Part shown: positions 43,548 to 60,367 of the stretch, in pieces
Numbering within the stretch: the first letter of the stretch is position 1
Layout of the letters: each line of letters starts with the position of its first letter
Assembly: GCA_964654325.1 (NCBI GenBank)
Contig: CAZZJF010000001.1
Coordinates: forward strand, 6,606 to 70,605
Length of the DNA: 64,000 nucleotides
DNA from: an uncultured Ferruginibacter sp.
GTDB taxonomy: Bacteria; Bacteroidota; Bacteroidia; Chitinophagales; Chitinophagaceae
Direction: 5' to 3'
The notes under the pieces: generated by a model
Databases searched by the model: none
What the model was told of the DNA's origin: nothing
Seen by the model: only the letters and a program-made list of their open reading frames with translations
Made by a program: the position numbers and the translations under genes

Positions 43548-44542
43548 AAAAAAAGAAAAGGGGCCATGGGTTTTCCAAAAATAAAAATCAAACCGTTAAG
43601 AAAAAAGTAAATACCCGAACGAGACGATCGCCGGGTGGTATCATAGTAGCCGGATTCTATGCAAAGTTGCCAACCCTGTTTTTCAAAAAGCTGTTGATAA
43701 TATTGCAATGGTAACAATCGTTCTGTCCAGCTCCCGGTAACGGGGTCACAGGTGTTATACGGATCCTCGGGTGGCGTCAGTAGAGAGCCATTATACAAAT
43801 AACAATCCACCGCTTTTTGTACATCTACCAGCGTTAAACCACGTGTGCGTCCAACCCAGTCGCTCAATGCCGGTTCTTCAAACCACTGTTTTAAAAACGA
43901 GGCCCGTGTACTTCGATATCCGGGATGGGAAGGTTCCCCCTTGGTGGGATCGCCCGAAAAGCCTTCCCATTCATCGCGGTGCTGTTGCCGGCGAATAGAC
44001 CGACACTTGACTCTATTGACAGGATTAGCTGCTGTTGTAAAACAACATACCACCGCAGGATGTAATTGCTTCACGGATGCCAGAAAAAAATCAAGATCAT
44101 AGATATGCTCGATCACATCCGCGCCCACCACGGCTTGCACTGGAAACGGCCGATCAACCGGGAGAACAGATAGATTGGTGCCTTCGACAAAAACACATTG
44201 ATCGAGATCAAGTGCATTGGCGAGGTTACAGGCCGCCTCCACAAAATCAGCCTGCGCATCCAGCAAGGTAATATGTCCAAAACCACAATACCGGGCAAAT
44301 AACCCCAGGAGCCCGTTTCCGCAACCAACATCCAGTAAGCCGAGCTGTTCTTTGGGAGCGTCCGTGCGGGCCAAAACCCGTTCCAGCATATCAGCATAAA
44401 TAGTCAGGTAATAGCGGGCGTGTTGTTGCAGGTAGGTAAAATAACCCGAGGCATGTTTGTGCGCACTGACCCTGGTCGGATCCAACTGTTGGATTCGCTG
44501 TTGAAAAGCCGGTATATATGCCGATAATGGCCGCGCTGACAT
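43514..44542 (-). CDS. Class I SAM-dependent methyltransferase
   Basis: [17 protein letters not shown]. Confidence 0.8.
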
Positions 44543-44634
44543 GGTGCTGCAATATTACGGAATCCGGAGCGCCAAGGCATTGGTTCAGGATAATCCATCC
44601 ACTAAACAATCTGTACCTTTACGAAAAAACGGAT

Positions 44635-45831
44635 ATGAACACTGCGTTTGTAGCACGCATACAACAAGAACTTACTGAAATTGAAGCAGCCGGGCTCATG
44701 AAGCGCGAGCGGATCATTGCCAGTGAACAAGGACCGGAGATCCTGGTGAATGGTCAAACGGTGCTTAATTTTTGTGCTAATAATTACCTCGGACTGTCAT
44801 CACACCCCAACGTCGTGGAGGCCGCCAAGCGCTATGTTGATCAGCGGGGATTTGGAATGAGCAGTGTACGTTTCATTTGTGGTACGCAGGACATCCACAA
44901 AACATTGGAGAAGAAGCTGGCCGATTTTCTGGAAACCGAGGATACCATTCTTTATGCGGCAGCCTTTGATGCCAACGGTGGCGTTTTTGAACCCTTATTC
45001 AATGAAGAAGATGCCATCATCAGTGATTCACTGAATCATGCGTCTATCATCGACGGCATCCGCTTATGTAAGGCACAGCGTTACCGCTATGCTCATAACG
45101 ACATGCAAGACCTGGAAGAGAAACTCAAAGAGACACAATCCCTGCGAAGCCGCATCATTGTAACCGATGGTTCATTCAGTATGGACGGCACGATTGCCCA
45201 ACTAGATAAAATATGTGATTTAGCAGACCGCTATGATGCTATTGTGATGATTGACGAGTGCCATTCGTCGGGGTTTTTAGGAAAAACAGGACGAGGCACA
45301 CATGAATACCGCAACGTCATGGGGCGGGTAGATATCATTACCGGCACCCTAGGAAAAGCGCTGGGAGGTGCCAGCGGCGGTTTCACCTCTGGCAAAAAAG
45401 AAATCATTGAAATGCTCCGGCAACGCAGTCGCCCATACCTGTTCAGTAATACGTTGGCACCAAGTATTGTGGGGGCGTCTATAGCCGTTTTGGATATGCT
45501 CTCCGAAACCACTGAACTCCGCGATAAACTGGAGTACAATACGCGGTACTTCCGTGAAAAAATGACTGCGCATGGCTTTGACATCAAACCGGGTGACCAT
45601 CCGATTGTTCCGATCATGCTATATGATGCGGTACTCGCTCAATCATTTGCCACACGTTTACTTGAGGAAGGCATTTACGTGATTGGCTTCTTTTATCCGG
45701 TAGTAGCCAAAGGACAGGCCCGTATCCGGGTTCAGCTCAGCGCTGCCCATACACAAGAACACTTAGATCGTGCCATTGAGGCCTTTGCGCGGGTGGGTGC
45801 CGAACTGGGTGTCATCTCTCCAATTAAATAA
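44635..45831 (+). CDS. kbl: Glycine C-acetyltransferase (2-amino-3-ketobutyrate CoA ligase)
   Basis: [50 protein letters not shown]. Confidence 0.97.
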
Positions 45832-45838
45832 TAACAAT

Positions 45839-46903
45839 ATGATCAAACCATTCATTTGCCTGGCTGTATTGCTCTCGTCAATAGTCGTTCCCGGATCCGC
45901 CCAAAGCAACCGTGATCTTCCGGTTGTATATGCAGAAGGTGGTCAAGGTACACGAGTGGATTATCGAAAAAAAGGAAGCCGCCATGATGAAGAAGGGCCT
46001 TACGCTGACTCCTACTTTACAAATGGCTGTGATCACGGAAACATTGCCTTACGGGCAACAAAAGCCAGCTCCACCCTATCGCCCCAAGGCAAAAATTCAT
46101 ACACAATCAAAAACCTCACCGATTACAGTCCGCTTACCGCTTGGGTTGAGGGCGTTGAAGGCTATGGCATTGGTTCCTTTTTTGAAGTGGTTTGTAACAA
46201 TGTGAATACTATTTTCAACGGCTACCAGTCTTCCCCGCAAAACTGGCTAAAAAACTCGCGGGTCAAAACATTTAAAATCTACATGGATAATCGTCCGCTC
46301 TGTCTTTTACAACTTACCGATGAGATGGGCGAGCAGCGATTTGAGCTTCCCATCGAAAACGACTGGGACGCATCTCATTTATTCCGGTTTGAAATCCTGG
46401 ATGTATACCCGGGATCAACATGGGATGATGTATGTATATCTGAAATCGGAAACCAGGGTTGCTGTATTTTAGCGAGCACGTTTGATCAATATGCCACTGA
46501 CAATACCGTAATGGGCTATGATCAAACAACCAATGCCTTTGAGACGGCCACTATCGATCAATTGACTACCCGTATTCATTTCACTTTGCTAGACATTCAG
46601 GCTGGTGATAATCGTATTCAAATAACAGAAGATCATCCGTTGTTCATACAGGGATTTGGCCCCATGTCTCTGCTTCAATTGAAAAGTATCTGCCAAACCA
46701 GTTCCTATGATGCGTTAGCGGCGGATGGCGTTTATGTGTTGTGCGGAGACGCTAAAAACAAGCCGATTTATACGCGCATTGAAACGATCCGTATCATAAA
46801 AGGCCGTTTTAACACCAAAACCATTCGCGCATTAAATCGGGGGGAGTCCTACCTGATGAGCGGTTTTTTACACCCGGTCCGAAACATTCAAAAATCCAAC
46901 TGA
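45839..46903 (+). CDS. Exported discoidin-like (NADase-type) glycan-binding domain fused to a degenerate Hint domain
   Basis: Signal peptide; TAWVEG..G.GIG, NGYQ..NSRVK, FEILDVYPG..WDDVCISEI; then G-CC, ITEDHPLF and terminal beta strands. Confidence 0.65.
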   Translation: MIKPFICLAVLLSSIVVPGSAQSNRDLPVVYAEGGQGTRVDYRKKGSRHDEEGPYADSYFTNGCDHGNIALRATKASSTLSPQGKNSYTIKNLTDYSPLTAWVEGVEGYGIGSFFEVVCNNVNTIFNGYQSSPQNWLKNSRVKTFKIYMDNRPLCLLQLTDEMGEQRFELPIENDWDASHLFRFEILDVYPGSTWDDVCISEIGNQGCCILASTFDQYATDNTVMGYDQTTNAFETATIDQLTTRIHFTLLDIQAGDNRIQITEDHPLFIQGFGPMSLLQLKSICQTSSYDALAADGVYVLCGDAKNKPIYTRIETIRIIKGRFNTKTIRALNRGESYLMSGFLHPVRNIQKSN

Positions 46904-46904
46904 T

Positions 46905-47612
46905 ATGCACAGAATACTGATAGGCCTGCTGATAACCATCGTCTTCGCAAGCTGTGGCGAGAATCCCAACGACAAAATGATTGTCGGACGATGGAAAAGT
47001 GTATCCTGGCTGGCGGATGGAAGGCCAAAGAACATCAAGATTGATGGTGTGTTCTTTGCGTTCGACTCGCTCGGACAATATACGTTTTGGCAACCAGGCA
47101 ACACGGAGGAAGGAACATATAAAATTGAAAAAAACATGTTGTTTACCAAGGCCAAGGGACAACAGGAAATGATGGTGAAAATTGAACTGCTCACCCTGGA
47201 CAGCTTGGTGCTTGGCATGAATAATGGCGGAACTCCCGAAAAGTTAACCCTGATCAGACATGCCGAACAGCCAGGCAAAATATCCGGTGAAAACAACACA
47301 TACCTCCAGCTCGCTGATAATGGAACCTATCGGCTCAAACCCGGACAACGGGCACAAATCAAGGTGTACGAAAACACATCAACCGGCGCATACTGGCAAG
47401 TATTGAAACCAACCGACTCCGCCATCATCCGAATGCATAGTGATGATTACATACCGGAAAGTAATGATCCCGGAATCGTCGGCGCCGGAGGAACACGCAT
47501 TTATACCATTGAGGCTATGCGCAGTGGAAAAGACAGCCTGGTATTATTTCATGGACGCGAATGGGAACCCGACTCCTGGTCGTTCAGTCGCTACCTGATT
47601 GTGGTTGAATGA
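46905..47612 (+). CDS. Lipoprotein: lipocalin-like domain plus chagasin (I42) protease-inhibitor domain
   Basis: FASC lipobox; IVGRWK lipocalin start; ENTSTGAYW, VGAGG, GREWE chagasin loops. Confidence 0.75.
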   Translation: MHRILIGLLITIVFASCGENPNDKMIVGRWKSVSWLADGRPKNIKIDGVFFAFDSLGQYTFWQPGNTEEGTYKIEKNMLFTKAKGQQEMMVKIELLTLDSLVLGMNNGGTPEKLTLIRHAEQPGKISGENNTYLQLADNGTYRLKPGQRAQIKVYENTSTGAYWQVLKPTDSAIIRMHSDDYIPESNDPGIVGAGGTRIYTIEAMRSGKDSLVLFHGREWEPDSWSFSRYLIVVE

Positions 47613-48249
47613 GCTGTTTCATCCTACGACGGGCGCTTATATACAAATACCACTCCGCGACAGCAACATTGAAAATCCACCCCCACCACGCCACAAACCG
47701 GTAAACATCCATGGGTGGCCAATCGGCCATATTCATGATGCCAAATTTCCAGGCACGCAACGTGAGGGCTGAAAGTGTAAGCGCAAAACTGCGAATCATC
47801 CACTGACGGTGTTGTTTGAATTGTTTCTTAACAGCCGTTTGCCACGCTTTCATTGTTGTGATCAACCAAAGAACAGCCAGCAGAACGAAGGCGGTTTGAG
47901 AGGAAAGTCCACCATTGGCATATAAACCCATAACCAACCCCGAAGGCGCCGCAACGAAAAGAATTGTACAGATATAAACATAACCGATGAACCGATGCAC
48001 CCGCGGATAGGTACGGAGCAGGGTGTTTGAAAATTGGGTGAACCCAGCCAACAACGTGAACATACTGGTATAAACATGAATAAAAAAAGCGAAGCGCCAA
48101 TGCGCGATCCCAATAAAATCTTGCTTGATACGAAGAAAGGCTACATCCGTTTGATATGGAATATATTGCCAGGTAATGCGAAGCATCAGAAAACAGAAAA
48201 ACAGGTATGTGACAATCAATAAATAATCGATATATTTGAAAGACTTCAT
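47584..48249 (-). CDS. DUF2306-like membrane protein
   Basis: FFIHV, HRFIGYVY, HRQWMIRSFALTLSALTLR. Confidence 0.82.
   Translation of the reverse strand: MKSFKYIDYLLIVTYLFFCFLMLRITWQYIPYQTDVAFLRIKQDFIGIAHWRFAFFIHVYTSMFTLLAGFTQFSNTLLRTYPRVHRFIGYVYICTILFVAAPSGLVMGLYANGGLSSQTAFVLLAVLWLITTMKAWQTAVKKQFKQHRQWMIRSFALTLSALTLRAWKFGIMNMADWPPMDVYRFVAWWGWIFNVAVAEWYLYISARRRMKQLIQPQSGSD
48231..48238 (+). promoter_or_regulatory. -7 element for the YARHG gene, located inside the DUF2306 coding sequence
   Basis: TATATTTG, exact match. Confidence 0.45.
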
Positions 48250-48270
48250 TGTTAATGGCCACTAAACAAC

Positions 48271-49041
48271 ATGTATATGCGCAACACACTCATCAGCTCA
48301 CTGGCTCTTTTTTTATTATGTGCCTGTGGCGGGAAAGATACTAATAAAGATGATGTAAACGGTTCCTCCGACAATACAGGTCAACCCAATCAGTTGGATG
48401 CAGAGACCATCGCGGCACAGCAAAACGCAGTCATTGGTTCTTATGTGGGTTATTTTGGCGAAGCGATGATTGATAACAAGATCACGCTATTGATCAACAA
48501 ATGTGAAAACGGCACCGTTAGCGGCCGATCGATTGTTGGCGGCAATGACCGGCCATTCGAAGGTGTTTTTAAAAACGAAAACGGGTTGATCAAAATAGAG
48601 GCCGATGAACCCGGAGATAATCGCTATGATGGTCACTTCTCGATTATTGCCGACCCTGCAACGCCTCATACCATCATGGGTAACTGGAAACCCTTTCAAA
48701 ACACAACAAACCCCAAGAGCTATCGACTTGAACGCAAATCCTTCGTGTATGATCAATCGGTTGGTACGTACCCCGAAGCATCCCAACGATTGTTGAACAC
48801 CGCCGATGTGGAAAATATGACCAAGAGTGAGCTGTCTTATATGCGTAACGAGATTTTTGCCAGACATGGCTATTGTTTTCAAAAAAAAGAATGGCGAAGC
48901 ATGTTTGAAATTGACGACTGGTATGTACCCAACACCGCATCCATTAAAAACCTGCTAACCCCGATTGAAAAGAAAAATATTGCATTGATCCTACGGTATG
49001 AAGAATACGCTACAGAATATGGTGATGAGTATGGCCGCTAA
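48271..49041 (+). CDS. YARHG-domain lipoprotein
   Basis: LCAC lipobox; LSYMRNEIFARHGYCF...F....WY.P, LTPIEKKNI. Confidence 0.9.
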   Translation: MYMRNTLISSLALFLLCACGGKDTNKDDVNGSSDNTGQPNQLDAETIAAQQNAVIGSYVGYFGEAMIDNKITLLINKCENGTVSGRSIVGGNDRPFEGVFKNENGLIKIEADEPGDNRYDGHFSIIADPATPHTIMGNWKPFQNTTNPKSYRLERKSFVYDQSVGTYPEASQRLLNTADVENMTKSELSYMRNEIFARHGYCFQKKEWRSMFEIDDWYVPNTASIKNLLTPIEKKNIALILRYEEYATEYGDEYGR

Positions 49042-49831
49042 TGTCAGACGATTCCCCTTTCTGGGCTTTTTCTTAATAGCTGCCCTATCACCGAATGCAT
49101 CGTTCGGACAAACAACGAATGCCAATCCGCCGGCGGCTGTCCAAAAAATCTTACGATATTACAGCGACTATGTTCATTATGAAAACAATCGGTTTCTTTC
49201 CAAAAGCGGATCGACAGTAGTGTATGATGACGGCAAAAATGACAAGACATACATTGACATGATTGAACGCCCGGATGTAGAAGATCAATTCACATTTGCC
49301 TATCCGATTCCTTCTAAAAAAGCCATACGATATGATGATCCCGGTCGGATCCGGAATGACACCTTCTTCCGCATGATCTACGGACAAACCAAAGAAGCCA
49401 TAGAAGAGAACCTGACAACGATTGAGTGGTGCCCGCGCTTCAACGGAGGTGCCATACGTGTGACACGCATATTGGGGATCGATCAAAAGCTTCAAGCCAT
49501 CTCGGCCGAGCTCGAAAGCCATCCGGAATGGACCGACTGGCTAAAAGGCGGCGCCATCGCGTATGATGCAACACCCAAAAAAAGCTGGAACAGAGCACCT
49601 CACAATCTTGGCTACGCGATCGATCTCTTAATACCCGGTAAACATCATTGGCAGACTGAATGCGGATGTACACTTGAAAATGCTGTCTTAAAAGGGGGCA
49701 ATCGGCTTCCTGACGAATTGATTGCTATCTTTGAAAAAAACGGATTTATATGGGGCGGGAACTGGTATCATTATGAATCCCTGCATTTCGAATACCGGCC
49801 GGAACTGCTCCCCGACCAACCGGTACGTTAA
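49031..49831 (+). CDS. M15-family (D-Ala-D-Ala peptidase-like) metallopeptidase
   Basis: HNLGYAID, IFEKNGFIWGGNWYHYESLHFEYRPEL; start uncertain (49025/49031). Confidence 0.82.
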   Translation: MAANVRRFPFLGFFLIAALSPNASFGQTTNANPPAAVQKILRYYSDYVHYENNRFLSKSGSTVVYDDGKNDKTYIDMIERPDVEDQFTFAYPIPSKKAIRYDDPGRIRNDTFFRMIYGQTKEAIEENLTTIEWCPRFNGGAIRVTRILGIDQKLQAISAELESHPEWTDWLKGGAIAYDATPKKSWNRAPHNLGYAIDLLIPGKHHWQTECGCTLENAVLKGGNRLPDELIAIFEKNGFIWGGNWYHYESLHFEYRPELLPDQPVR

Positions 49832-49842
49832 CCGGAAACACC

Positions 49843-52140
49843 ATGCCGCCATTTCAGTTATATACGATCGGTCTGTTTTTATATTGTTTGCTTACTGTAT
49901 TACCGGCCGATGCCCAGCAAAAAGTTGTTCTTCCGTTCAAATCACTGAAAAAATCAGGCATTACGATAAGTCATACCCCCGGCAAATACGAGCAGGATCT
50001 TCTATTACAGATTCAGATGCCGGATAACATCCGTTTGTCATATACAACCAACGGGTATTATTCAGATAGCATCACTCAATACCTCGCTTCACCAATCAAC
50101 ATCCGGCAAACAACCGCATACACGTGGCGGCTGCATCGCAACGGCCGAGCCACTGATACTTTTTTTTGCGGGACCTATTTGATTCGTGAAAAAACCACAC
50201 TGCCGATCACAACACTGATCATACCCCCCACTTATCTCTTCGATCCGGTTCAAGGCATTTATGTAGGTGGCGGAAAGGTCAATGATGAAAAACCTTGGGG
50301 TAATTGTTGGAAAGACATGGAAGTCCCTGCATTCTTCGAATTTTTTCGGGAAAACGGAGATAACCCGATACATCAACACTGCGGATTGAAAATATTTGGT
50401 GGATATACCCGCGGCAATCCGGAGAAATCCATGAAAGTAACCGCCAAAAAAAAATACGGCCCCGGGAAATTTAAAGGCCGGATTTTTCCGCTTAAAGACA
50501 TTCGAACATTCAACGCGCTTGTTTTACGTGTTTCCGGCAGCGATTTCATGAAAACCCGTTTTCAAGACATGCTTTGTGCATCCCTTGCCGCCGAGATGCG
50601 CATCGACCATATGACCTATCAGCCATCGATCCTGTTTGTCAATGGCGAATATTGGGGTATTCACAATGTTCGTGAAAAAATTGACCTGACCTACCTCGAG
50701 AAAAATCATGGCGCAGACAGCGCCTCCACTGACCTTCTCCATTTTGATGGCGATCGGCTGTTCGGCAGTTCCGTTGCCTATGCGAATATGATTCAGGACT
50801 TTAAAAATCTGGAACCGAACAACCCGCGGTTCATCGAGGAAATAGAGCGTAGGATGGATGTGACGAATTATTTCAACTACATGGTTTTACAAATTTACCT
50901 GGCCAATGTAGACATGCGCGGTAACGTCAAATTCTGGCGAGCCGGAAACCTGGATGGCCGGTTTCGCTGGATATTTTATGACGCCGACTTGGGCTTTCAG
51001 GCGGAAAATCTCAACTTCCTGGCAAAACGAATCAGTCCGGTAGCCACCGACTGGTACAACCCCACCCAAAACACCTTTCTCCTCCGAAAACTCCTGTCTC
51101 ACCCAACGTTGCGTGACCGTTTTATCCGACAATATTGTCTTTTCTCGGCAACCCTACTGAGTGACTCATCCATTCAACAACGAATCAATACCTTTCACAA
51201 CTGGCTAGCCCCGGAAATGCCCAGGCACTTGAACCGCCGAACGTTCAAACAATCCGTCGCAGAATGGGAAAAGCACGTAGAAAATCTTCGCGCCTTTTCA
51301 AGAGTGAGAAATAAAACCAGTATGGCACATCTGGCCGAATGCTTTCAGCTCAAAAAACCCTATCAGCTTCAATTGACCGGCACATCAACCGATAGCCTCA
51401 ATCGAATCTGCATCAATGGGTATCCTTTACCCAGCCGGCAACTCAACGGCACCTTTTTTGGCGAAATACCATTGGATCTGTCTATTCAGCTTAAAAGTCC
51501 ATTTGAACGATTCGTGGGGTGGAGTGATGGAGAGAAGAATCCTCATCGCTCAGTTATTGAACCTAAAAACAGCGTCGTACAGCTCACGGCTAAGTTCGCA
51601 GCGCTTGAGAAATCAACCCACTATCAACAAACGTTCATCAACTGCGTACATGCACAAGTCAATGATACTTCGAAGCCATGGGTTTCCATCCGGTTAGGAA
51701 GCGGTTTGGCATATCCTATCAAGGTTTGGGAAACGGTTTCTGGTTTTCAAGCTCAGATCCAGCAAACAAAATACAGACAGGTGGTCATTGCCGCCGATAC
51801 AAGCCAGTGGCGAAAACAGTTTCCCGACCAGTCAGTCTTCCTTATTCAGGATAGCGGACTTTCCTTCGCTTCCGAAAAAATGCGATTTGGTATAGCTGAC
51901 CGGAATCACTACTTACTGGATAGCGTAGGCGTTCTGTCATCCGGATCAGACACGACGGACTATTCGTACTATGTTCGATCCGAAGCGCAACTGATACCGG
52001 CTGCAAAACCAAACTGGTATTCATCGGAATGGGGTGACGGGCTTTCTTCGGAGGTATTGATGGCTTGGCTGTTTTTAGCGGGCGGTACCAGCTTGGGTGT
52101 CCTGATCGCCCTGTGGCTGATTCGTCGGAAGCGCGTTTAG
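49843..52140 (+). CDS. CotH-family kinase with C-terminal membrane anchor
   Basis: Signal peptide; GLKIFGGYTR, PSILFVNGEYWGIHNVREKID, ANVDMRGNVK, RWIFYDADLGF; ends in a hydrophobic helix plus RRKRV. Confidence 0.85.
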   Translation: MPPFQLYTIGLFLYCLLTVLPADAQQKVVLPFKSLKKSGITISHTPGKYEQDLLLQIQMPDNIRLSYTTNGYYSDSITQYLASPINIRQTTAYTWRLHRNGRATDTFFCGTYLIREKTTLPITTLIIPPTYLFDPVQGIYVGGGKVNDEKPWGNCWKDMEVPAFFEFFRENGDNPIHQHCGLKIFGGYTRGNPEKSMKVTAKKKYGPGKFKGRIFPLKDIRTFNALVLRVSGSDFMKTRFQDMLCASLAAEMRIDHMTYQPSILFVNGEYWGIHNVREKIDLTYLEKNHGADSASTDLLHFDGDRLFGSSVAYANMIQDFKNLEPNNPRFIEEIERRMDVTNYFNYMVLQIYLANVDMRGNVKFWRAGNLDGRFRWIFYDADLGFQAENLNFLAKRISPVATDWYNPTQNTFLLRKLLSHPTLRDRFIRQYCLFSATLLSDSSIQQRINTFHNWLAPEMPRHLNRRTFKQSVAEWEKHVENLRAFSRVRNKTSMAHLAECFQLKKPYQLQLTGTSTDSLNRICINGYPLPSRQLNGTFFGEIPLDLSIQLKSPFERFVGWSDGEKNPHRSVIEPKNSVVQLTAKFAALEKSTHYQQTFINCVHAQVNDTSKPWVSIRLGSGLAYPIKVWETVSGFQAQIQQTKYRQVVIAADTSQWRKQFPDQSVFLIQDSGLSFASEKMRFGIADRNHYLLDSVGVLSSGSDTTDYSYYVRSEAQLIPAAKPNWYSSEWGDGLSSEVLMAWLFLAGGTSLGVLIALWLIRRKRV

Positions 52141-52247
52141 CCTGGCCAACCCATTCCCTGTATTTCTGTACCTTGCATTTGGATTGCTGGCGAGCAGACT
52201 GACAGACTGACCCCAGCATCAGAACCCATAAAAATTGAGATATCATT

Positions 52248-52808
52248 ATGTACAAGTGCTTATTACCCTTCGTGTTGTTAATTGTATTGAGTGCCTGCTC
52301 CAACTCCGATCAACAAGATGTTGGGAATATCTTCCCCTATTTGAAAGCCAATGGCAAATATACCTATGTGGACGCCTCCCGCAAACAGGTGATCACGGGC
52401 GAATATGACGATGCCATGCCGTTTCGCAATGGGGTGGCGGGCGTAACACAAAACGGACAGTCGTTTTACATCAATAAAGAAGGAATAAATATTTTTGGAA
52501 CTTCTTTTCAAAAAGTACGGGCTTTTAAAGATGGTGTAGGTCGGGTGAAAATCAATGATCATTGGGGCGGAATCAATAAAGATGGAAATCTCATTCTCAA
52601 AACCGAATGGGACGATCTGGAAAACTTTAGCGAAGGCATGGCCGCTGTATTGCGAAACGGGAAATGGGGTTATATAGGCAAAGACGGCAAGATCTTGATT
52701 GAACCGCAATTTGACAAAGCAGATGATTTTAAAAATGGTTTGGCCAAAGTAGAATCAGGCTCATCCTATTTTTTCATTAGCAAAGACGGTAAGATCTGGA
52801 AGGAGTAA
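52248..52808 (+). CDS. WG-repeat lipoprotein
   Basis: LSAC lipobox; repeated F.xG.A.V...GKWG.I...G. Confidence 0.9.
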   Translation: MYKCLLPFVLLIVLSACSNSDQQDVGNIFPYLKANGKYTYVDASRKQVITGEYDDAMPFRNGVAGVTQNGQSFYINKEGINIFGTSFQKVRAFKDGVGRVKINDHWGGINKDGNLILKTEWDDLENFSEGMAAVLRNGKWGYIGKDGKILIEPQFDKADDFKNGLAKVESGSSYFFISKDGKIWKE

Positions 52809-52889
52809 TAATAATTTTCTGTTAAGCTGAGCAAGATGCTGTTGTGAGCCGGAATGGATCGCTAGATTTATGGCTTATTCGGTGTGAAC

Positions 52890-53738
52890 ATGCGTTTCAA
52901 TCATTTCATTGTTTATTTACTCGCAATCAAACTAATCGCCTGCCAACAAACCGAGACAATAGCGCCAGTCTTTTCGATACCGACTCGTTCAAATCTGGCA
53001 GCTAACATCACCAAACAAGATTCATCGAAAATCTGTGGCCAAAAAGAGCTGTCAGTTGATCGCACCCATTATGTCTACCTGACTTTTGACGATGGACCCC
53101 ATGCATCGACACCGGATATTGTCAACCTGCTCACTTCCAGAAACGTCAAGAGTAGTTTTTTCATCATCGGCGACCACATAACCCGCTCCGAAAAAAATCG
53201 TTTGATTTATGAATTCCTTAAAAACACACCGAATTGTAAAATGTATAACCATACCCACACCCATGCCATAACCAACGGACAGTATAGTAATTACTACCAA
53301 TATCCAGAAGCTGTGTGGCAGGATATCCATAACAACAAAGTGTTCATGCCTGCCGATGCGCGGATTACGAGGCTACCGGGCACCAATGCATTTCGCATGA
53401 AAAATTATCGTTTCCCATCCAAGGGAGTGGGTGGAAACATGATCCGGTACCTGGATTCCATAAAATCAACCGAAGCGCTGTTGGGTTGGCATTTTGAGTG
53501 GACCAGCCGTGAGAGTACAGATACTGCTGCCGTTTCAGCCATGATAGCAGCCGTAGCTACAGATACTACCCGCCAACATCCCTTTCAACGGCACACTATT
53601 ATACTCTTCCACGATTTCCATTTTAAATCGACCGCCTCACTGAACCTGCTGGCACGTTTCATCGACGAACTTCAAGTCAAATACCATTGTACGTTTAGAT
53701 GGGCTGAGGAGTTTCCTGACATCCACGTGCCGATGTAA
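52890..53738 (+). CDS. Polysaccharide deacetylase (CE4/NodB), probable lipoprotein
   Basis: YLTFDDGP, NHTHTH, RLPG, ILFHD. Confidence 0.9.
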   Translation: MRFNHFIVYLLAIKLIACQQTETIAPVFSIPTRSNLAANITKQDSSKICGQKELSVDRTHYVYLTFDDGPHASTPDIVNLLTSRNVKSSFFIIGDHITRSEKNRLIYEFLKNTPNCKMYNHTHTHAITNGQYSNYYQYPEAVWQDIHNNKVFMPADARITRLPGTNAFRMKNYRFPSKGVGGNMIRYLDSIKSTEALLGWHFEWTSRESTDTAAVSAMIAAVATDTTRQHPFQRHTIILFHDFHFKSTASLNLLARFIDELQVKYHCTFRWAEEFPDIHVPM

Positions 53739-53787
53739 GAAAATGCGTACAATTTTCATACCTTAGAAGCCAAGGTTGTTCATACAA

Positions 53788-54957
53788 ATGAGCGCCGATC
53801 TGCCCATGCAACAGCGCTACTATTCACTCGATGTATTCAGAGGTGCCACTGTAGCGCTCATGATCCTGGTGAATAATCCCGGATCCTGGACAAATGTATT
53901 TCCGCCACTCCGTCATGCCGAATGGCATGGATGTACTCCCACCGATCTCGTTTTTCCGTTTTTTCTTTTCGCGGTTGGGAACGCCCTGGCCTTTACCATC
54001 GACCGCTATCGGCTGATGCCAGCCGGTGCTTTTTTGCGGACAATCAGCCAACGAGCGCTCTGGTTAATCTTAATCGGTGTTTTTTTAAGCTGGTGTCCTT
54101 TTTTTGTGTGGTCGCAAGATCATTGGACATTCAAAGCGTGGGAAGACATACGCTTGTTCGGTGTACTGCAACGCATTGGAATCACCTTCTTCGTGGCGTC
54201 GTTATTTCTCTACTTTTTCAAGCCTGCCTGGGTTTTGGTTATCGCCGGCCTGCTGTTGATGGCTTATTGGGGTCTATGCATTGGATGGGGCCATCCGCCA
54301 GACCCTTATTCTCCAAGCGGTTATTTCGGACATCCGATTGACCTGGCTCTTTTGGGGAAGAACCACTTGTACAAACAGGGGGCCGTTGTGGACCCGGAGG
54401 GACTCATGAGTACCCTTCCGGCCATTGTGCAGGTATGGTTGGGCTACTTTGTTGGAGATTGGATCCGGACAAAGGGGAAAACCTATGAAATGCTTGCCCG
54501 TTTGTTCGTTATCGGATGCCTGTTGACCCTGATCGGTTTATGCTGGAATCAGGTATTCCCGATCAATAAAACGATGTGGACCAGTTCGTACACGGTTTAC
54601 ACGACCGGATTGGCCATATTGGCTTTATCCTGTTTGATTTATTTCCTTGAATTCAGATCGGCAAAAGGAAGCTGGAGTGCTTGCTTCAACGTATTTGGTA
54701 AAAATCCCCTGTTTATTTTTGTCCTTAGCGGATTCCTGCCACGCATAAGCACCCTTATTCAAATCAACACCGGGCGATTTAATGACCAGGGCGAAGCCAT
54801 TTTACTCAATCCGTTTTCATGGCTCTATGAGCATATTTTTAAAAATATAGCGACCGATTTACGAATTGGCTCACTCAGTTATGCTGTTTTTCTGATATTT
54901 GTCTATTGGATGATCGTATTTTGGATGGACAAACGAAAGATTTACATTCGCGTCTGA
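53788..54957 (+). CDS. HGSNAT/DUF5009-like membrane acyltransferase
   Basis: SLDVFRG, HAEWHGCTPTDLVFPFFLF, GVLQRI, DPEGLMST, PINKTMWT. Confidence 0.88.
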   Translation: MSADLPMQQRYYSLDVFRGATVALMILVNNPGSWTNVFPPLRHAEWHGCTPTDLVFPFFLFAVGNALAFTIDRYRLMPAGAFLRTISQRALWLILIGVFLSWCPFFVWSQDHWTFKAWEDIRLFGVLQRIGITFFVASLFLYFFKPAWVLVIAGLLLMAYWGLCIGWGHPPDPYSPSGYFGHPIDLALLGKNHLYKQGAVVDPEGLMSTLPAIVQVWLGYFVGDWIRTKGKTYEMLARLFVIGCLLTLIGLCWNQVFPINKTMWTSSYTVYTTGLAILALSCLIYFLEFRSAKGSWSACFNVFGKNPLFIFVLSGFLPRISTLIQINTGRFNDQGEAILLNPFSWLYEHIFKNIATDLRIGSLSYAVFLIFVYWMIVFWMDKRKIYIRV

Positions 54958-54981
54958 TTTCCGACATCCGAATTGCACCCC

Positions 54982-55752
54982 ATGAATGGAACGTCCTCCG
55001 ATATTGCCACCATTTTGAACTCCATGGAAATACTACCCTTGGAGAAGGCAATCACCATCGACCTGATGGAGCGGTTTGATGAAAAATTTGTGGGCTCAGT
55101 CCAGCATCTGCCCGGAATATTGCGTGGAATCGAAGACCGTTTCATGGTACAGGCCACCGGCACCAAACGATACAGCGAATACAGAACGCTCTATTGGGAT
55201 ACACCTACCCTTGATTTTTTTAAAGACCACAGCCGTGGCAAATCAAAACGGGCAAAAATTCGAAAACGAATCTATACCGAAACCAACACCTCTTTTCTTG
55301 AAATCAAACGAAGCGTATCTGGTAAAACCTTTAAAACCAGGGTTCGTTCCGAATTCAATGAACAATTCACCGAAAGCGACCTCTCCTTCCTCTCGTTGAA
55401 CGGGTTTGATGGAAACAGCCTTGTGCCTATTCTCTACATCGAATATCAACGCATCATCTTATGGGATAAGGCCATGGAAGGACGAATGACCATCGACCTG
55501 GTATTTACGCCCTATCGCCACGAAAAAACCGATATATTTGACAATATTTTTATTTTTGAAATAAAAGGTTCCAGAGCGTATATCAACAAAACCATTCGCT
55601 CCATCGACTTTCCTATTGACCGAAACAGGACATCATTCACGAAATACGGCATCGGATTGATACACAGTATGGACATGGACACCCAAAACGCAAAAGGCCT
55701 CTTTACCATATATAAGAATTTACTGAAACTAAACCAACCGTTCGATGAATAA
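54982..55752 (+). CDS. VTC (polyphosphate polymerase, CYTH-like) domain protein
   Basis: RFDEKF, LYWDT, KIRKRIY, FLEIK, YQR, RMTID, FEIKG, TKY. Confidence 0.88.
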   Translation: MNGTSSDIATILNSMEILPLEKAITIDLMERFDEKFVGSVQHLPGILRGIEDRFMVQATGTKRYSEYRTLYWDTPTLDFFKDHSRGKSKRAKIRKRIYTETNTSFLEIKRSVSGKTFKTRVRSEFNEQFTESDLSFLSLNGFDGNSLVPILYIEYQRIILWDKAMEGRMTIDLVFTPYRHEKTDIFDNIFIFEIKGSRAYINKTIRSIDFPIDRNRTSFTKYGIGLIHSMDMDTQNAKGLFTIYKNLLKLNQPFDE

Positions 55753-56311
55753 CACCGTGATGTTAAGCCACCTGGGAATTGTTTTTTTATTGTTGATCGC
55801 CTATGGCATACTCTACCTGTTGCTGAGGAAAAACACCTTGTATTTCGTTTCTTCCACAATGATTGGCTTGGGAACATTTGCACTCATGTACGTTACCAAT
55901 AAAAATGAAGTGGGCGTGGGTACGGGCCTTGGACTCTTTGCCATTTTTGGCATCCTTCGTTACCGGACGGAACAAGTTCCCATCATTGAAATGACGTACC
56001 TGTTTCTGTCAATAACCATGGCCGTCATCATTGCCATGGCTGACAACTTGATTTTTAGTTTCTCTGAAGCGATCATCACCGACATCATCATCATGGTCTT
56101 GTCGTTGATCTTATTTTTTGTCCATCAACGGAATGAAACAAACGAAGTCGAGGTTCTTGTAGATTCCTTGGATTGGATGCAGTCTACAGAAGCAGAGAAA
56201 ATTAAGTTCCTTCAAGGAAAAACGATGGGTAAAATTACCGGTTACCGAGTCATGTATATTGACTGGCTGAAAGAAACATGCCGTGTGATGGTTACCCAAA
56301 AAGTGCATTGA
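55745..56311 (+). CDS. DUF4956-like membrane protein
   Basis: VGTGLGLFAIFGILRYRTE...EMTYLF; overlaps the VTC gene by 8 nt. Confidence 0.88.
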   Translation: MNNTVMLSHLGIVFLLLIAYGILYLLLRKNTLYFVSSTMIGLGTFALMYVTNKNEVGVGTGLGLFAIFGILRYRTEQVPIIEMTYLFLSITMAVIIAMADNLIFSFSEAIITDIIIMVLSLILFFVHQRNETNEVEVLVDSLDWMQSTEAEKIKFLQGKTMGKITGYRVMYIDWLKETCRVMVTQKVH

Positions 56312-56357
56312 TTATTCATCTCAGTTGTTCGTTTTTTCGTTCGAACAACGTTCGCAC

Positions 56358-57584: not shown

Positions 57585-57632
57585 TGCACGTTGATCCATT
57601 CAACAGAACGGTCGGTGCATGGAAAATTGCCC

Positions 57633-57640
57633 TACTTTTG
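57633..57640 (+). promoter_or_regulatory. -7 promoter element for lutB
   Basis: TACTTTTG 8 nt before ATG 57649. Confidence 0.5.
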
Positions 57641-57648
57641 TACTTGAT

Positions 57649-59037
57649 ATGCACCCTGCTACCACTTCCTTCCTGGAAAAAAGTGCCCGTAAAGCCGCCG
57701 ATCTCGATCATCGTCGTAAAATCTTGTTCAATATCGGCAAATACGATGCCTCTGTAAAAAAAGGCAAGCAACAATTCAGTGATTTGGAAACTGCCCGGAA
57801 GCGTGCGAAAAACATCAAATGGCGTGCGATTGAAACGCTGGATCAGCAACTGGAATCCTTCGAGCTGGCTTTTACCCGTCGCGGAGGTAAAGTAATCTGG
57901 GCAGAAAACGCGCAGCAAGCCATGGATGAAATTTTGCGTATCTGCCAGGCCAAGCAGTGTAAAACACTGGTAAAAAGTAAAAGCATGGTCACCGAGGAAA
58001 TCCACCTCAACCAGCACCTGGAAGCAGCCGGTATCGACAGTGTGGAAACCGATCTGGGTGAATATATTCAGCAACTCGATGGCGAGCCTCCCTATCACAT
58101 TGTTACGCCGGCCATGCATAAAAGTAAAGAAGACGTAGCTGATCTCTTTTCCCGCAAGCTGGGTACCGATCCAAATCTAACCCCTGAACAGCTAACTCAA
58201 GTCGCCAGAAAAATCCTTAGAAAAAAATATGTGCAGGCGCAAGTCGGTGTAACTGGCGCCAATTTCATCCTTAGTGATATTGGTGGCGTGGCAATTACAG
58301 AGAATGAGGGAAACGCACGACTCTCCTGCGCTTTTCCGGAAACCCATATCGTGATCGCAGGCATCGAGAAAGTGATTCCGTCAATAAATGACCTGGCTTT
58401 ATTTTGGCCGCTGCTAAGTACGTTTGGCACCGGTCAACAGCTCACTGTTTACAACACCATCTTGACCGGTCCGCGACAGCGCGGCGAAACCGATGGGCCC
58501 ACCGAAATGATCGTTATTTTACTGGATAACGGACGAACCAATATTCTCAAAGACCCCATTCAGCGTGAAAGTTTATACTGTATTCGCTGTGGTGCTTGTT
58601 TGAATGCCTGTCCCGTGTATAAAAATATTGGCGGCCACAGTTACGAAACAACGTACAGTGGTCCGATCGGCAGTGTGATCACCCCCAATATGGCGGGCAT
58701 GGAATCGTTTAAGCATCTCAGTTATGCTTCTTCACTTTGTGGCAACTGTACTGAAGTCTGCGCCGTTAAGATCAACCTTCACGAACTGTTACTCCATAAT
58801 CGGGCCAATTCTGTAAAAGAGGGCTTGGGACCTTTGTCTGAAAAAATGGCCTGGAAAGCTTGGCGAATCGCCAATCTTTACCGTGGGCTGATGAACAGTG
58901 CGCCCGGACAGGTCAAATCGGCTGTTGTTAATAGACTGTTCACGCAATGGACCAAGCACCGATCCGATTTGTCGTTCAGTTCAAAAACGTTCAATCAGCG
59001 TTGGCAAGAAAAACAAAAAAAAGGCAAGTCCTCCTGA
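57649..59037 (+). CDS. lutB: Lactate utilisation Fe-S protein B (LutB/LldF/YkgF)
   Basis: VKSKSMVTEEI, ETDLGEYI, TENEGNA, CIRCGACLNACPVY, SSLCGNCTEVC. Confidence 0.93.
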   Translation: MHPATTSFLEKSARKAADLDHRRKILFNIGKYDASVKKGKQQFSDLETARKRAKNIKWRAIETLDQQLESFELAFTRRGGKVIWAENAQQAMDEILRICQAKQCKTLVKSKSMVTEEIHLNQHLEAAGIDSVETDLGEYIQQLDGEPPYHIVTPAMHKSKEDVADLFSRKLGTDPNLTPEQLTQVARKILRKKYVQAQVGVTGANFILSDIGGVAITENEGNARLSCAFPETHIVIAGIEKVIPSINDLALFWPLLSTFGTGQQLTVYNTILTGPRQRGETDGPTEMIVILLDNGRTNILKDPIQRESLYCIRCGACLNACPVYKNIGGHSYETTYSGPIGSVITPNMAGMESFKHLSYASSLCGNCTEVCAVKINLHELLLHNRANSVKEGLGPLSEKMAWKAWRIANLYRGLMNSAPGQVKSAVVNRLFTQWTKHRSDLSFSSKTFNQRWQEKQKKGKSS

Positions 59038-59044
59038 CAGGACA

Positions 59045-60367
59045 GTGGCTCCTTTGATACAGGTATTTTGTCATACACGCAGCGCCAGGTTACACTATAT
59101 CTGTGACTGGATCTTTACGGAGCAGTTTCAAATCGATTATGTACTTATTAATTCGATGGAGGCACTCGATCCGAATAATCCGATCATCAATTACACGGAT
59201 TCGCCCATTTCTTATACAGCTATTCATATTTCACCCATTGGACTCCTTGAACAAAACGGTATCCGTTCACAGCCCATAAACAGTTTTCACTATCCATCTT
59301 TTTCAAACCCTGAGAAAAGCACCCCCGCTTTTTTTCAAACCGAAACAGCGGAGTGGTCTTTTGATCTTTTTTCGAGTGTCTTTTATTTGATCAGCCGGTA
59401 TGAGGAGTACACCGAAACAGTCCGGGACGAGCATGGCCGTTTCCCGCATACGCAGTCGTTGGCATACCGGATGAACGTTCTGCACATACCGCTTATTCAG
59501 CATTGGTTATTGGATTTACGATGGCTGATTCAAAACAAATGGGCTGCTGTATCAATGACTATAGCAACCCAGTCGCCGATGATTACCTATGATATCGACA
59601 TGGCTTGGTCGTATTTACACAAAGGCTGGTTGCGTAATCTTTTCGGCTGGCTGAAACAACCTTCACTCAACCGTATTCAGGTTTTAGTTGGAAACAAGCC
59701 GGATCCATTTGATATTTTCGACGACCTGATAGCGCGTCATCAAGAAACAAACACACCGGCGTTATTTTTCTTTCCGGCCGGAAAAAGCCACAACCGATAC
59801 GACAAACATATTTCACCAAATAACCCCGCCCTTCAAAAACGGATCCGTCAAATCGCAAACTATTTTGACATTGGTCTGCATCCTTCCTATTACAGCATGC
59901 AACAGCCTGAGCGCTTGATTGAAGAAAAAACCCGATTGGAACAATCGCTCGAAAAACAAATAATCCGCAGTCGACAACATTATATTCGATTTGCCTTGCC
60001 CGAAACATATCGCTACCTGATTGATGCCGGTATCCGGGAAGAGTATAGTATGGGCTATGGTAGCATCAATGGCTTCAGAGCTTCGACCTCAAGCTCCTTT
60101 CTTTGGTATGACCTGTCAACAGAACGTGTTACGGATTTACGGGTATTCCCTTTTTCGTTCATGGATGCCAATTGTATTTTTGAAGAAAAAATAGATGCCT
60201 CAGCGGCCTGGGACTATTATTGCGCACAGTTGCATCAATGTCAACGAGTGGGCGGAATGCCCGTGTCGATCTTTCATAATCACCTGCTTGCCAATGTATC
60301 CTCATATGTCGAATGGATTGATCTGCATGCGCGTATACTCCGCACTACAGCTCCGGCTCAGCCATAG
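59045..60367 (+). CDS. Polysaccharide-deacetylase-like protein (DUF7033-type)
   Basis: FYLISRYEEY, ITYDIDMA, IGLHPSY, RQHYIRF, GFRASTS, FHN; start set at GTG 59045. Confidence 0.8.
   Translation: MAPLIQVFCHTRSARLHYICDWIFTEQFQIDYVLINSMEALDPNNPIINYTDSPISYTAIHISPIGLLEQNGIRSQPINSFHYPSFSNPEKSTPAFFQTETAEWSFDLFSSVFYLISRYEEYTETVRDEHGRFPHTQSLAYRMNVLHIPLIQHWLLDLRWLIQNKWAAVSMTIATQSPMITYDIDMAWSYLHKGWLRNLFGWLKQPSLNRIQVLVGNKPDPFDIFDDLIARHQETNTPALFFFPAGKSHNRYDKHISPNNPALQKRIRQIANYFDIGLHPSYYSMQQPERLIEEKTRLEQSLEKQIIRSRQHYIRFALPETYRYLIDAGIREEYSMGYGSINGFRASTSSSFLWYDLSTERVTDLRVFPFSFMDANCIFEEKIDASAAWDYYCAQLHQCQRVGGMPVSIFHNHLLANVSSYVEWIDLHARILRTTAPAQP

Follow-up and report, generated by a model that had tools for sequence, protein, structure and literature searches.

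The genes closest to those studied here have been described in Gram-positive bacteria, in which cotH, a polyphosphate (polyP) polymerase gene and a DUF4956 gene, together with DUF4832, are accessory genes contiguous with pel operons (Whitfield et al. 2020, bioRxiv 10.1101/768473), and NELoc-2 of Clostridium perfringens likewise combines VTC and CotH with genes for a glycosyltransferase and a deacetylase (PMC11677781). Here we analyze a run of eight genes at 48271-56311 of a 64,000-nucleotide stretch of contig CAZZJF010000001.1 from an uncultured Ferruginibacter sp. (the whole stretch is referred to as the window, and its coordinates are used throughout); domain calls are based on the listing of open reading frames (ORFs) and on Pfam and NCBIfam scans. 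The run belongs to an accessory island, the functional core of which is a VTC-DUF4956 pair plus a CotH kinase, a widespread trio that may carry phosphate chemistry across the inner membrane. As a gene association this trio is already in print and is not a discovery of the window; new are the variant interleaved with CE4, NagX and WG genes, the allelic behaviour of the island, and a compartment-matching pattern of CotH and export genes. The three core genes are as follows (TM, transmembrane):

49843..52140, plus strand: CotH-fold kinase (Pfam E=3e-42, 145.7 bits), carrying a signal peptide and, at its C-terminus, a TM helix and then RRKRV
54973..55752, plus strand: single-domain VTC protein (Vtc4-type triphosphate tunnel; 259 aa; Pfam 58.5 bits vs a cut-off of 23)
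55745..56311, plus strand: DUF4956 membrane protein (Pfam 93 bits), its start overlapping the VTC stop by 8 bp

An earlier note on this DNA had read the eight genes as a candidate polyP-powered system of periplasmic phosphorylation or envelope modification. Its eight domain calls, the common strand, the small gaps and the 8-bp overlap of VTC and DUF4956 are confirmed by Pfam and the ORF listing (all eight ORFs lie on the plus strand, with successive gaps of -44, 11, 107, 75, 37, 15 and -8 bp).

The association of the trio was surveyed in 51 Bacteroidota loci, i.e., 20 kb around every VTC match in 10 order-level and 38 phylum-level genomes, plus the window, L017 (a near-identical genome fragment) and L019 (a more distant member of the Chitinophagaceae), all clustered by neighbour families. 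DUF4956 adjoins VTC in 50 of these loci, being downstream on the same strand in 46 and separated by a gap of at most 20 bp in 40. Of 251 Bacteroidota genomes, 38 have VTC, and every one of these also has DUF4956 (38/38, Fisher p=9e-24), and the matches to VTC and DUF4956 in 14 control genomes fall in the same three; VTC, DUF4956 and CotH were all found in Bacteroides thetaiotaomicron and Corynebacterium glutamicum in the control searches. In about 23 of the 51 loci, VTC has a CotH gene (four clusters, Pfam-confirmed) no more than 10 kb away, against a chance expectation of 0.5-10%, and CotH occurs in 10/10 VTC-positive relatives compared with 8/31 VTC-negative ones (p=4e-5). The recurrence of VTC-DUF4956-CotH, to which the earlier note had pointed, is borne out both by this phylogenetic profiling and by the literature on pel loci. 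In the window, CotH is situated 2.8 kb upstream of VTC with WG, CE4 and NagX between them; the three genes are contiguous in L019 and in the contig (P0003) that carries the nearest outside relative of the window VTC (48% identity), where no genes intervene.

Judged from its sequence, the VTC protein is cytoplasmic and the only cytoplasmic protein of the eight-gene set: its likely start is the ATG at 54982, and no signal peptide, hydrophobic segment, SPX domain, TM (DUF202) domain or other Pfam match was detected in it. The tunnel motifs are intact, as the earlier note had claimed, with residues that are invariant in 14 bacterial VTC proteins (R34, K38, Y74, D76, R93, K95, R97, R99, Y101 and E110, and also K112, K121, R160, R171, T173, D175, E196, K198 and K224). 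A single-sequence phmmer search of the Protein Data Bank (PDB) with VTC gave no match, and a profile of the 14 homologues found Vtc4 (3G3Q) at E=2e-9. K38, K112, R160, R171 and K224 align with K200, K281, R361, R373 and K458 of Vtc4, which we take to be the tunnel residues as numbered by Hothorn et al. 2009. R97/R99 align with R264/R266 and E196 with E426, and the triple mutant R264A/R266A/E426N inactivates yeast VTC (PMC9911596). The clade of the window VTC is small, comprising three proteins in a 5.8-billion-protein collection, and a narrow VTC alignment search of species genomes returned three loci, all from Ferruginibacter/Chitinophagaceae metagenome-assembled genomes (MAGs). The genome itself encodes PPK1 and no PPK2; because PPK1 is already there, VTC is an additional, specialised enzyme. 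At another locus (L044:8100-10433) a 778-aa protein carries the VTC domain at residues 518-743, behind an N-terminal region of about 500 aa without Pfam match, and a normal DUF4956 gene follows.

For DUF4956, the AlphaFold2 (AF2) model (pLDDT 87.9) has TM helices at residues 3-27, 31-53, 58-75, 80-97 and 106-128, followed by a beta-alpha-beta-beta ACT-like domain. The alignment shows two invariant arginines, R72 and R74, within the motif GLFAIFGILRYRT, and by the positive-inside rule these two residues and the ACT-like domain face the cytoplasm. Foldseek of the model against the PDB gave no match at E<0.2, entries of the VTC complex included, and weak fold matches to ACT domains. Half of the DUF4956 relatives examined (21/42) match Pfam MgtC weakly (best E=4.2e-6), and the window protein has no MgtC match at E<=1. 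Going by the predicted architecture of five helices and an ACT-like domain, DUF4956 is MgtC-like and not Vtc1-like; the relationship to MgtC has also been noted by the authors of a preprint on Streptococcus intermedius (bioRxiv 10.1101/2024.04.20.589940). Almost all of 670 DUF4956 representatives are stand-alone proteins of 150-280 aa, and no fusion of VTC and DUF4956 was found among the best 150 of them. A single metagenomic representative (P0196, 671 aa) joins DUF4956 (34-207), a lipobox-like hydrophobic segment and CotH (318-628) in a DUF4956-TM-CotH protein; this may be a genuine fusion, or else two neighbouring genes read through as one. DUF4956-like genes without a VTC match were found in 39 of the 251 Bacteroidota genomes, most of them belonging to one family (f40) and matching in their N-terminal part only. 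A few matches in the phylum survey are full-length and strong (e.g., G179:C1:2184053-2184577 and G155:C15:260888-261409), which suggests either that another enzyme is the partner or that VTC has diverged beyond the reach of the Pfam model.

The CotH protein consists of a signal peptide, a CHB_HEX_C-like beta-sandwich, the kinase domain (about residues 120-500), two further beta-sandwich domains and the TM helix, the additional beta-sandwich domains resembling CHB_HEX_C and lamin-tail modules. Its AF2 model (pLDDT 91.2) retrieved Bacillus cereus CotH (5JDA/5JD9) by Foldseek at E=5e-15 and a TM-score of 0.78; PDB searches with the sequence gave no match by single-sequence phmmer, and the profile missed 5JD9. 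All 54 homologues aligned share N355, D357, N361 and D380, and the D357-D380 spacing of 23 is the same as that of D228-D251 in B. subtilis CotH, a match in spacing and not a residue-level alignment. Both D228 and D251 are essential in the B. subtilis protein. On the basis of the model and of its signal peptide and C-terminal TM helix, the window protein is taken to be a true CotH-fold kinase, anchored in the inner membrane and facing the periplasm, in agreement with the membrane-anchored atypical kinase that the earlier note had described. The compartments assumed there also stand, with VTC predicted in the cytoplasm, DUF4956 in the membrane and CotH outside the cytoplasm. CotH homologues of equal length retain both signal peptide and TM tail, and others carry tails of the type IX secretion system (T9SS). 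The genome (2.5 Mb) has five CotH paralogues, only one of which is beside VTC (the others are at C2:26717-29089, C13:16697-17701, C84:4603-5697 and C271:120-812), and one relative (G026) has 22 CotH matches.

Genes of export type recur next to the VTC-DUF4956 pair. HlyD-like periplasmic adaptors occur in 22 of the 51 loci (two clusters, joined by hhalign at 98% probability). DUF2490 outer-membrane proteins are encoded in 8 of the 51, small lipoproteins in 9 and SdiA-regulated/phytase-like propellers in 4, and the adaptors and DUF2490 as recurrent neighbours fit export of something. In the 14 loci that have CotH plus a HlyD-like adaptor or DUF2490, the CotH proteins end in T9SS sorting tails (i.e., surface or secreted proteins), whereas the three loci without adaptor and DUF2490 genes (the window, L017 and L019) encode a periplasmic CotH with a TM anchor at its end. 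This correlation between the address of CotH and the export genes would be expected if the product of VTC/DUF4956 were delivered to the compartment in which CotH resides. The beta-propeller gene lies directly beside VTC-DUF4956 (L026:8575-9345, and cluster c13 in L027, L032 and L037), and its product could be a phosphoesterase acting on what the pair makes.

The eight-gene run lies within an accessory island that is flanked by an aminotransferase gene and MFS/LutB-like genes:

45832..56350, no strand assigned: accessory island of about 10.5 kb
44518-45831: aminotransferase gene, the upstream flank
57619-59037: LutB-like gene, the downstream flank
48231..48238, plus strand: candidate promoter TATATTTG, a Bacteroidota-type -7 motif that precedes the start codon of YARHG by about 33 bp

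The closest matches to the locus are Ferruginibacter/Chitinophagaceae MAGs from freshwater metagenomes. When 30 congeners were searched at the DNA level, their aminotransferase and LutB-like genes were usually about 100 bp apart, or else separated by other inserts of 0.8-5.8 kb; the island is absent from congeners, and the VTC gene was found in none of 24. The fragment L017 has a homologous island at the same site (L017:786-10290) with the order YARHG-M15-lipocalin/I42-M15-CotH-WG-CE4-NagX-VTC-DUF4956. DNA identity between the window and L017 is 92-98% in the flanks, the MFS gene included, and 58-84% in the interior of the island (amino-acid identity is 55% for CE4, 70% for CotH and 74% for WG), with sharp breaks at about 45.8 kb (the end of the aminotransferase gene) and about 56.36 kb (the DUF4956/MFS junction). 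Because identity breaks sharply at both ends, the run is taken to lie in an accessory cassette the whole of which diverges together, as surface-structure loci usually do. Replacement of the cassette or diversifying selection, of the kind seen at capsule/O-antigen loci, would give such a picture. A defence island is unlikely, PADLOC having given no defence-system match for ten island proteins, and a Pel-type locus is ruled out by the absence of pel and glycosyltransferase families among the 16 proteins of 43.5-60.4 kb. The candidate promoter TATATTTG is a consensus match only, found by pattern search (other matches of the motif are intragenic), and is a candidate start of the co-directional run; a scan with a sigma-70 promoter model, which is unsuited to Bacteroidota, and for terminators performed no better than on shuffled sequence. 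No RNA runs holding the locus were found, the locus being seen only in freshwater DNA metagenomes. Further downstream, the LutB-like ORF (LUD plus 4Fe-4S) and the next ORF, a DUF7033/VimE-like deacetylase (together window 57619-60367), overlap by 140 bp as listed, and the real start of the latter is probably further downstream.

The remaining genes of the run, and the neighbour that diverges from it, are the following:

47584-48249, divergent from YARHG: DUF2306 gene, the conserved partner of YARHG
48271..49041, plus strand: YARHG-domain lipoprotein (Pfam E=1.4e-21; lipobox LLCAC)
48998..49831, plus strand: exported Peptidase_M15_4, a LAS-type zinc peptidase (Pfam E=6.5e-13; signal peptide; HxxGxAxD and ExxH)
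52248..52808, plus strand: WG-repeat lipoprotein (WG_beta_rep; four repeats, Pfam E=4e-35; lipobox LSAC)
52884..53738, plus strand: CE4 deacetylase lipoprotein (Polysacc_deac_1; Pfam E=4.8e-13, 49.6 bits; also matched in NCBIfam; lipobox LIAC)
53776..54957, plus strand: NagX/HGSNAT-like transmembrane acetyltransferase (HGSNAT_cat 22.3 bits vs a cut-off of 22, i.e., marginal)

In the CE4 sequence, the motifs TFDD, HTHTH, RLPG and LFHD can be read, and motif 4 (DxxDW) is not evident. The acetyltransferase matches NCBIfam NagX (141.6 bits, E=3e-41) and falls short of the equivalog cut-off, which is 480; by these scores it is a member of the family and not an equivalog. Congeners have a single-copy NagX-like gene (54% identity) beside ABC-F and MurJ genes (L063-L068); in the genome studied here the ABC-F/MurJ site (C5:1178-3067) has no NagX-like gene and the island copy is the only one, the island gene being the single housekeeping-type copy of the genus, relocated.

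Which of these genes belong with the trio can be read from L019 (VTC 41%, CotH 42% identity), in which VTC-DUF4956-CotH is followed by two unknown genes and then by WG (47%), CE4 (38%) and a NagX-like gene (51%), the last on the opposite strand beside CE4; M23, NlpC/P60, Amidase_3 and PGA_cap genes are among the neighbours of this cluster. CotH, WG, CE4, NagX, VTC and DUF4956 are thus kept together in a rearranged order (at 38-51% identity), and YARHG and M15 are not. WG, CE4 and NagX stand beside the trio in 3 of the 51 loci (the window, L017 and L019), and no homologues of WG, CE4, NagX, M15 or YARHG were found in the 48 other VTC loci. M15 adjoins CotH in L017 and L018 only and is absent from L019, as is YARHG. 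A divergent DUF2306/YARHG pair, of membrane protein and lipoprotein, occurs in congeners without the rest of the island (L012:9075-10483 and L013:9040-10447), and YARHG is probably a passenger of the island with DUF2306 as its conserved partner. Membership of YARHG and M15 in a conserved system is ruled out by the clusters of relatives and the survey of other VTC loci; with DUF2306, a lipocalin/chagasin protein and an F5/8 protein, they are probably passengers of the island. The claim that all eight genes form one conserved system has therefore to be given up, with YARHG paired to DUF2306 and M15 present in the nearest relatives only, and the system should be reduced to VTC-DUF4956 (an obligate pair), CotH (a frequent partner) and WG, CE4 and NagX (lineage companions). 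Of the helpers proposed for the wall substrate, the deacetylase and the acyltransferase are kept with the trio in one lineage, and the peptidase is not.

The most likely mechanism, which we advance tentatively, is polyP synthesis coupled to the membrane, followed by hand-over to the periplasm and use by or together with CotH. The cytoplasmic Vtc4-like enzyme, to judge from its conserved catalytic residues, would polymerise phosphate from nucleoside triphosphate at the inner face of the inner membrane. DUF4956, which appears to be translationally coupled to it, would take the product at the Arg-x-Arg site on the cytoplasmic face and may pass it, or phosphoryl groups, to the periplasmic side, as the gene context suggests. 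More speculatively, the anchored CotH, with its beta-sandwich domains of glycan-binding type, might act on an envelope substrate with the exported polymer as donor or co-substrate. The retention of CE4, NagX-like and WG genes beside the trio in a rearranged order suggests that their products probably act on the same hexosamine-containing envelope polymer, and the interleaving of the trio with a deacetylase/re-acetylase pair points to a hexosamine-containing substrate. We regard it as highly doubtful that polyP goes so far as to replace ATP as the phosphoryl donor of CotH for envelope glycans or proteins. On that polyP-donor reading, and with as little confidence, an anchored CotH would call for polyP in the periplasm only, and a T9SS-exported one for its onward passage through a HlyD-like adaptor and an outer-membrane protein; equally improbable in our estimate is the corollary that the target here is a hexosamine polymer the N-acetylation of which is set by the CE4 and NagX-like enzymes.

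A number of points weigh against hand-over of polyP to CotH. We know of no CotH-fold kinase that uses polyP, and MgtC, the relative of DUF4956, is a regulator (of F-ATPase and PhoR) for which, to our knowledge, no transport activity has been described; triphosphate tunnel metalloenzymes (the TTM/CYTH superfamily, to which Pfam VTC belongs) include triphosphatases and cyclases too. CotH is frequent in the absence of VTC (the 8 of 31 VTC-negative relatives), detectable homology of DUF4956 to the Vtc1/Vtc4 channel is ruled out by Foldseek, the correlation between CotH address and export genes is not phylogenetically independent because the anchored type of CotH comes from one lineage, and the linkage of WG, CE4 and NagX to the trio is likewise confined to one lineage with about two independent arrangements. 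A literature search found no paper testing a bacterial VTC protein, transport by DUF4956 or the use of polyP by CotH, and single deletions of SIR_1592-1594 in S. intermedius left Pel production and aggregation in place, with a small change in the DUF4956 mutant only (bioRxiv 10.1101/2024.04.20.589940). PolyP, or whatever else VTC makes, might instead stay in the cytoplasm, DUF4956 being an MgtC-like anchor or regulator with an ACT ligand sensor, which would position or control VTC or sense its product, and CotH an independent protein, linked to the pair by shared regulation of envelope and phosphate physiology; CotH would then use another donor, or be a non-catalytic surface binding protein as in Mucorales. 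Both parts of this explanation we consider somewhat unlikely. The weak Pfam MgtC matches of half of the DUF4956 relatives, the five-TM plus ACT-like architecture shared with MgtC and the lack of a structural match to any channel speak for it, as do the commonness of CotH without VTC and of DUF4956-like genes without VTC (the 39 of 251 genomes above), and the VTC/DUF4956 pair is interpreted likewise in the S. intermedius preprint (bioRxiv 10.1101/2024.04.20.589940). It leaves unexplained, however, why HlyD-like adaptors and outer-membrane proteins stand beside the pair without another inner-membrane component, why the export genes track the location of CotH, and why VTC depends so strictly on CotH at the genome level.

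It is rather unlikely, in our view, that the run is merely a mosaic of unrelated accessory envelope genes at a recombination hot spot, in which VTC-DUF4956, perhaps with CotH, is the only unit, and no less unlikely that CE4, NagX, WG, M15 and YARHG each act alone on peptidoglycan or amino sugars. The aminotransferase-LutB site does hold differing inserts (0.1-5.8 kb) across congeners, YARHG has DUF2306 as its partner at other sites, NagX exists once per genome in the genus and has been moved here, none of the five genes was found in the 48 other VTC loci, and the trio is contiguous in the nearest outside relative (the P0003 contig); but L019 once more has WG, CE4 and NagX next to the trio, with order and strand changed and identities of only 38-51%, polysaccharide deacetylases accompany the trio in Gram-positive Pel loci and C. 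perfringens NELoc-2 as well, and the island diverges as a single block. PolyP exported by VTC-DUF4956 could also be an end product, a polyanion of the periplasm or matrix that binds cations or de-N-acetylated cationic glycans, which we hold to be distinctly unlikely, and the same holds for its corollary that CotH is not fuelled by polyP and might attach, trim or bind the polymer. Adaptor and outer-membrane genes do occur beside the pair even without CotH (about 28 of the 51 loci have no CotH within 10 kb), and the trio is accompanied in three unrelated settings by CE4 deacetylases, enzymes that give rise to cationic amino sugars; the presence of CotH in 10/10 VTC-positive relatives and the tracking of export parts by CotH location, however, point to a direct functional tie. 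Of the interpretation given in the earlier note, the trio, the Vtc4-like residues and the compartments stand, and the export-type neighbours fit it; the unity of the eight genes does not stand, and the roles proposed for DUF4956 and CotH are weakened by the lack of similarity of DUF4956 to the Vtc1/Vtc4 channel and by the frequency of CotH without VTC.

Membrane-coupled synthesis and periplasmic hand-over of polyP would bear on how bacteria could run kinase reactions beyond the cytoplasm, with no supply of ATP, and on whether prokaryotes have a PPK-independent, export-coupled polyphosphate polymerase. The whole gene set, moreover, behaves as a fast-diverging surface cassette.

Compared with described systems, the locus resembles the pel-locus cassette in its exported CotH, cytoplasmic VTC and membrane-bound DUF4956 with an ACT-like tail, and in the polysaccharide deacetylase nearby. 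It differs from that cassette in belonging to a Gram-negative member of the Bacteroidota, in lacking pel and glycosyltransferase genes in 44-60 kb and in being part of a hypervariable accessory island; its CotH is TM-anchored and not secreted, and three genes (WG, CE4, NagX-like) separate CotH from VTC. With the eukaryotic VTC complex (Vtc4/Vtc3/Vtc1; 3G3Q, 7YTJ, 8I6V) it shares the Arg, Lys and Glu residues of the catalytic tunnel and an obligate membrane partner, although the window VTC has neither SPX nor a DUF202-type TM domain and DUF4956 is unrelated to Vtc1 in sequence and predicted fold. DUF4956 is like MgtC/SapB (PF02308) in having five TM helices and then a cytoplasmic ACT-like domain, and unlike it in its own invariant RxR motif and its obligate VTC neighbour. 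The Bacillus CotH spore-coat Ser/Thr kinase (5JD9/5JDA) has the same atypical kinase fold (TM 0.78) and Asp spacing as the window CotH, whereas the latter is extracytoplasmic and membrane-anchored, has three extra beta-sandwich domains and comes from an organism that does not sporulate. Finally, the island shares its VTC-DUF4956 core with loci of other Bacteroidota in which tripartite efflux-type assemblies (HlyD adaptor plus outer-membrane duct) stand beside the pair; adaptor and outer-membrane genes are missing from the island itself, in keeping with a periplasmic CotH.

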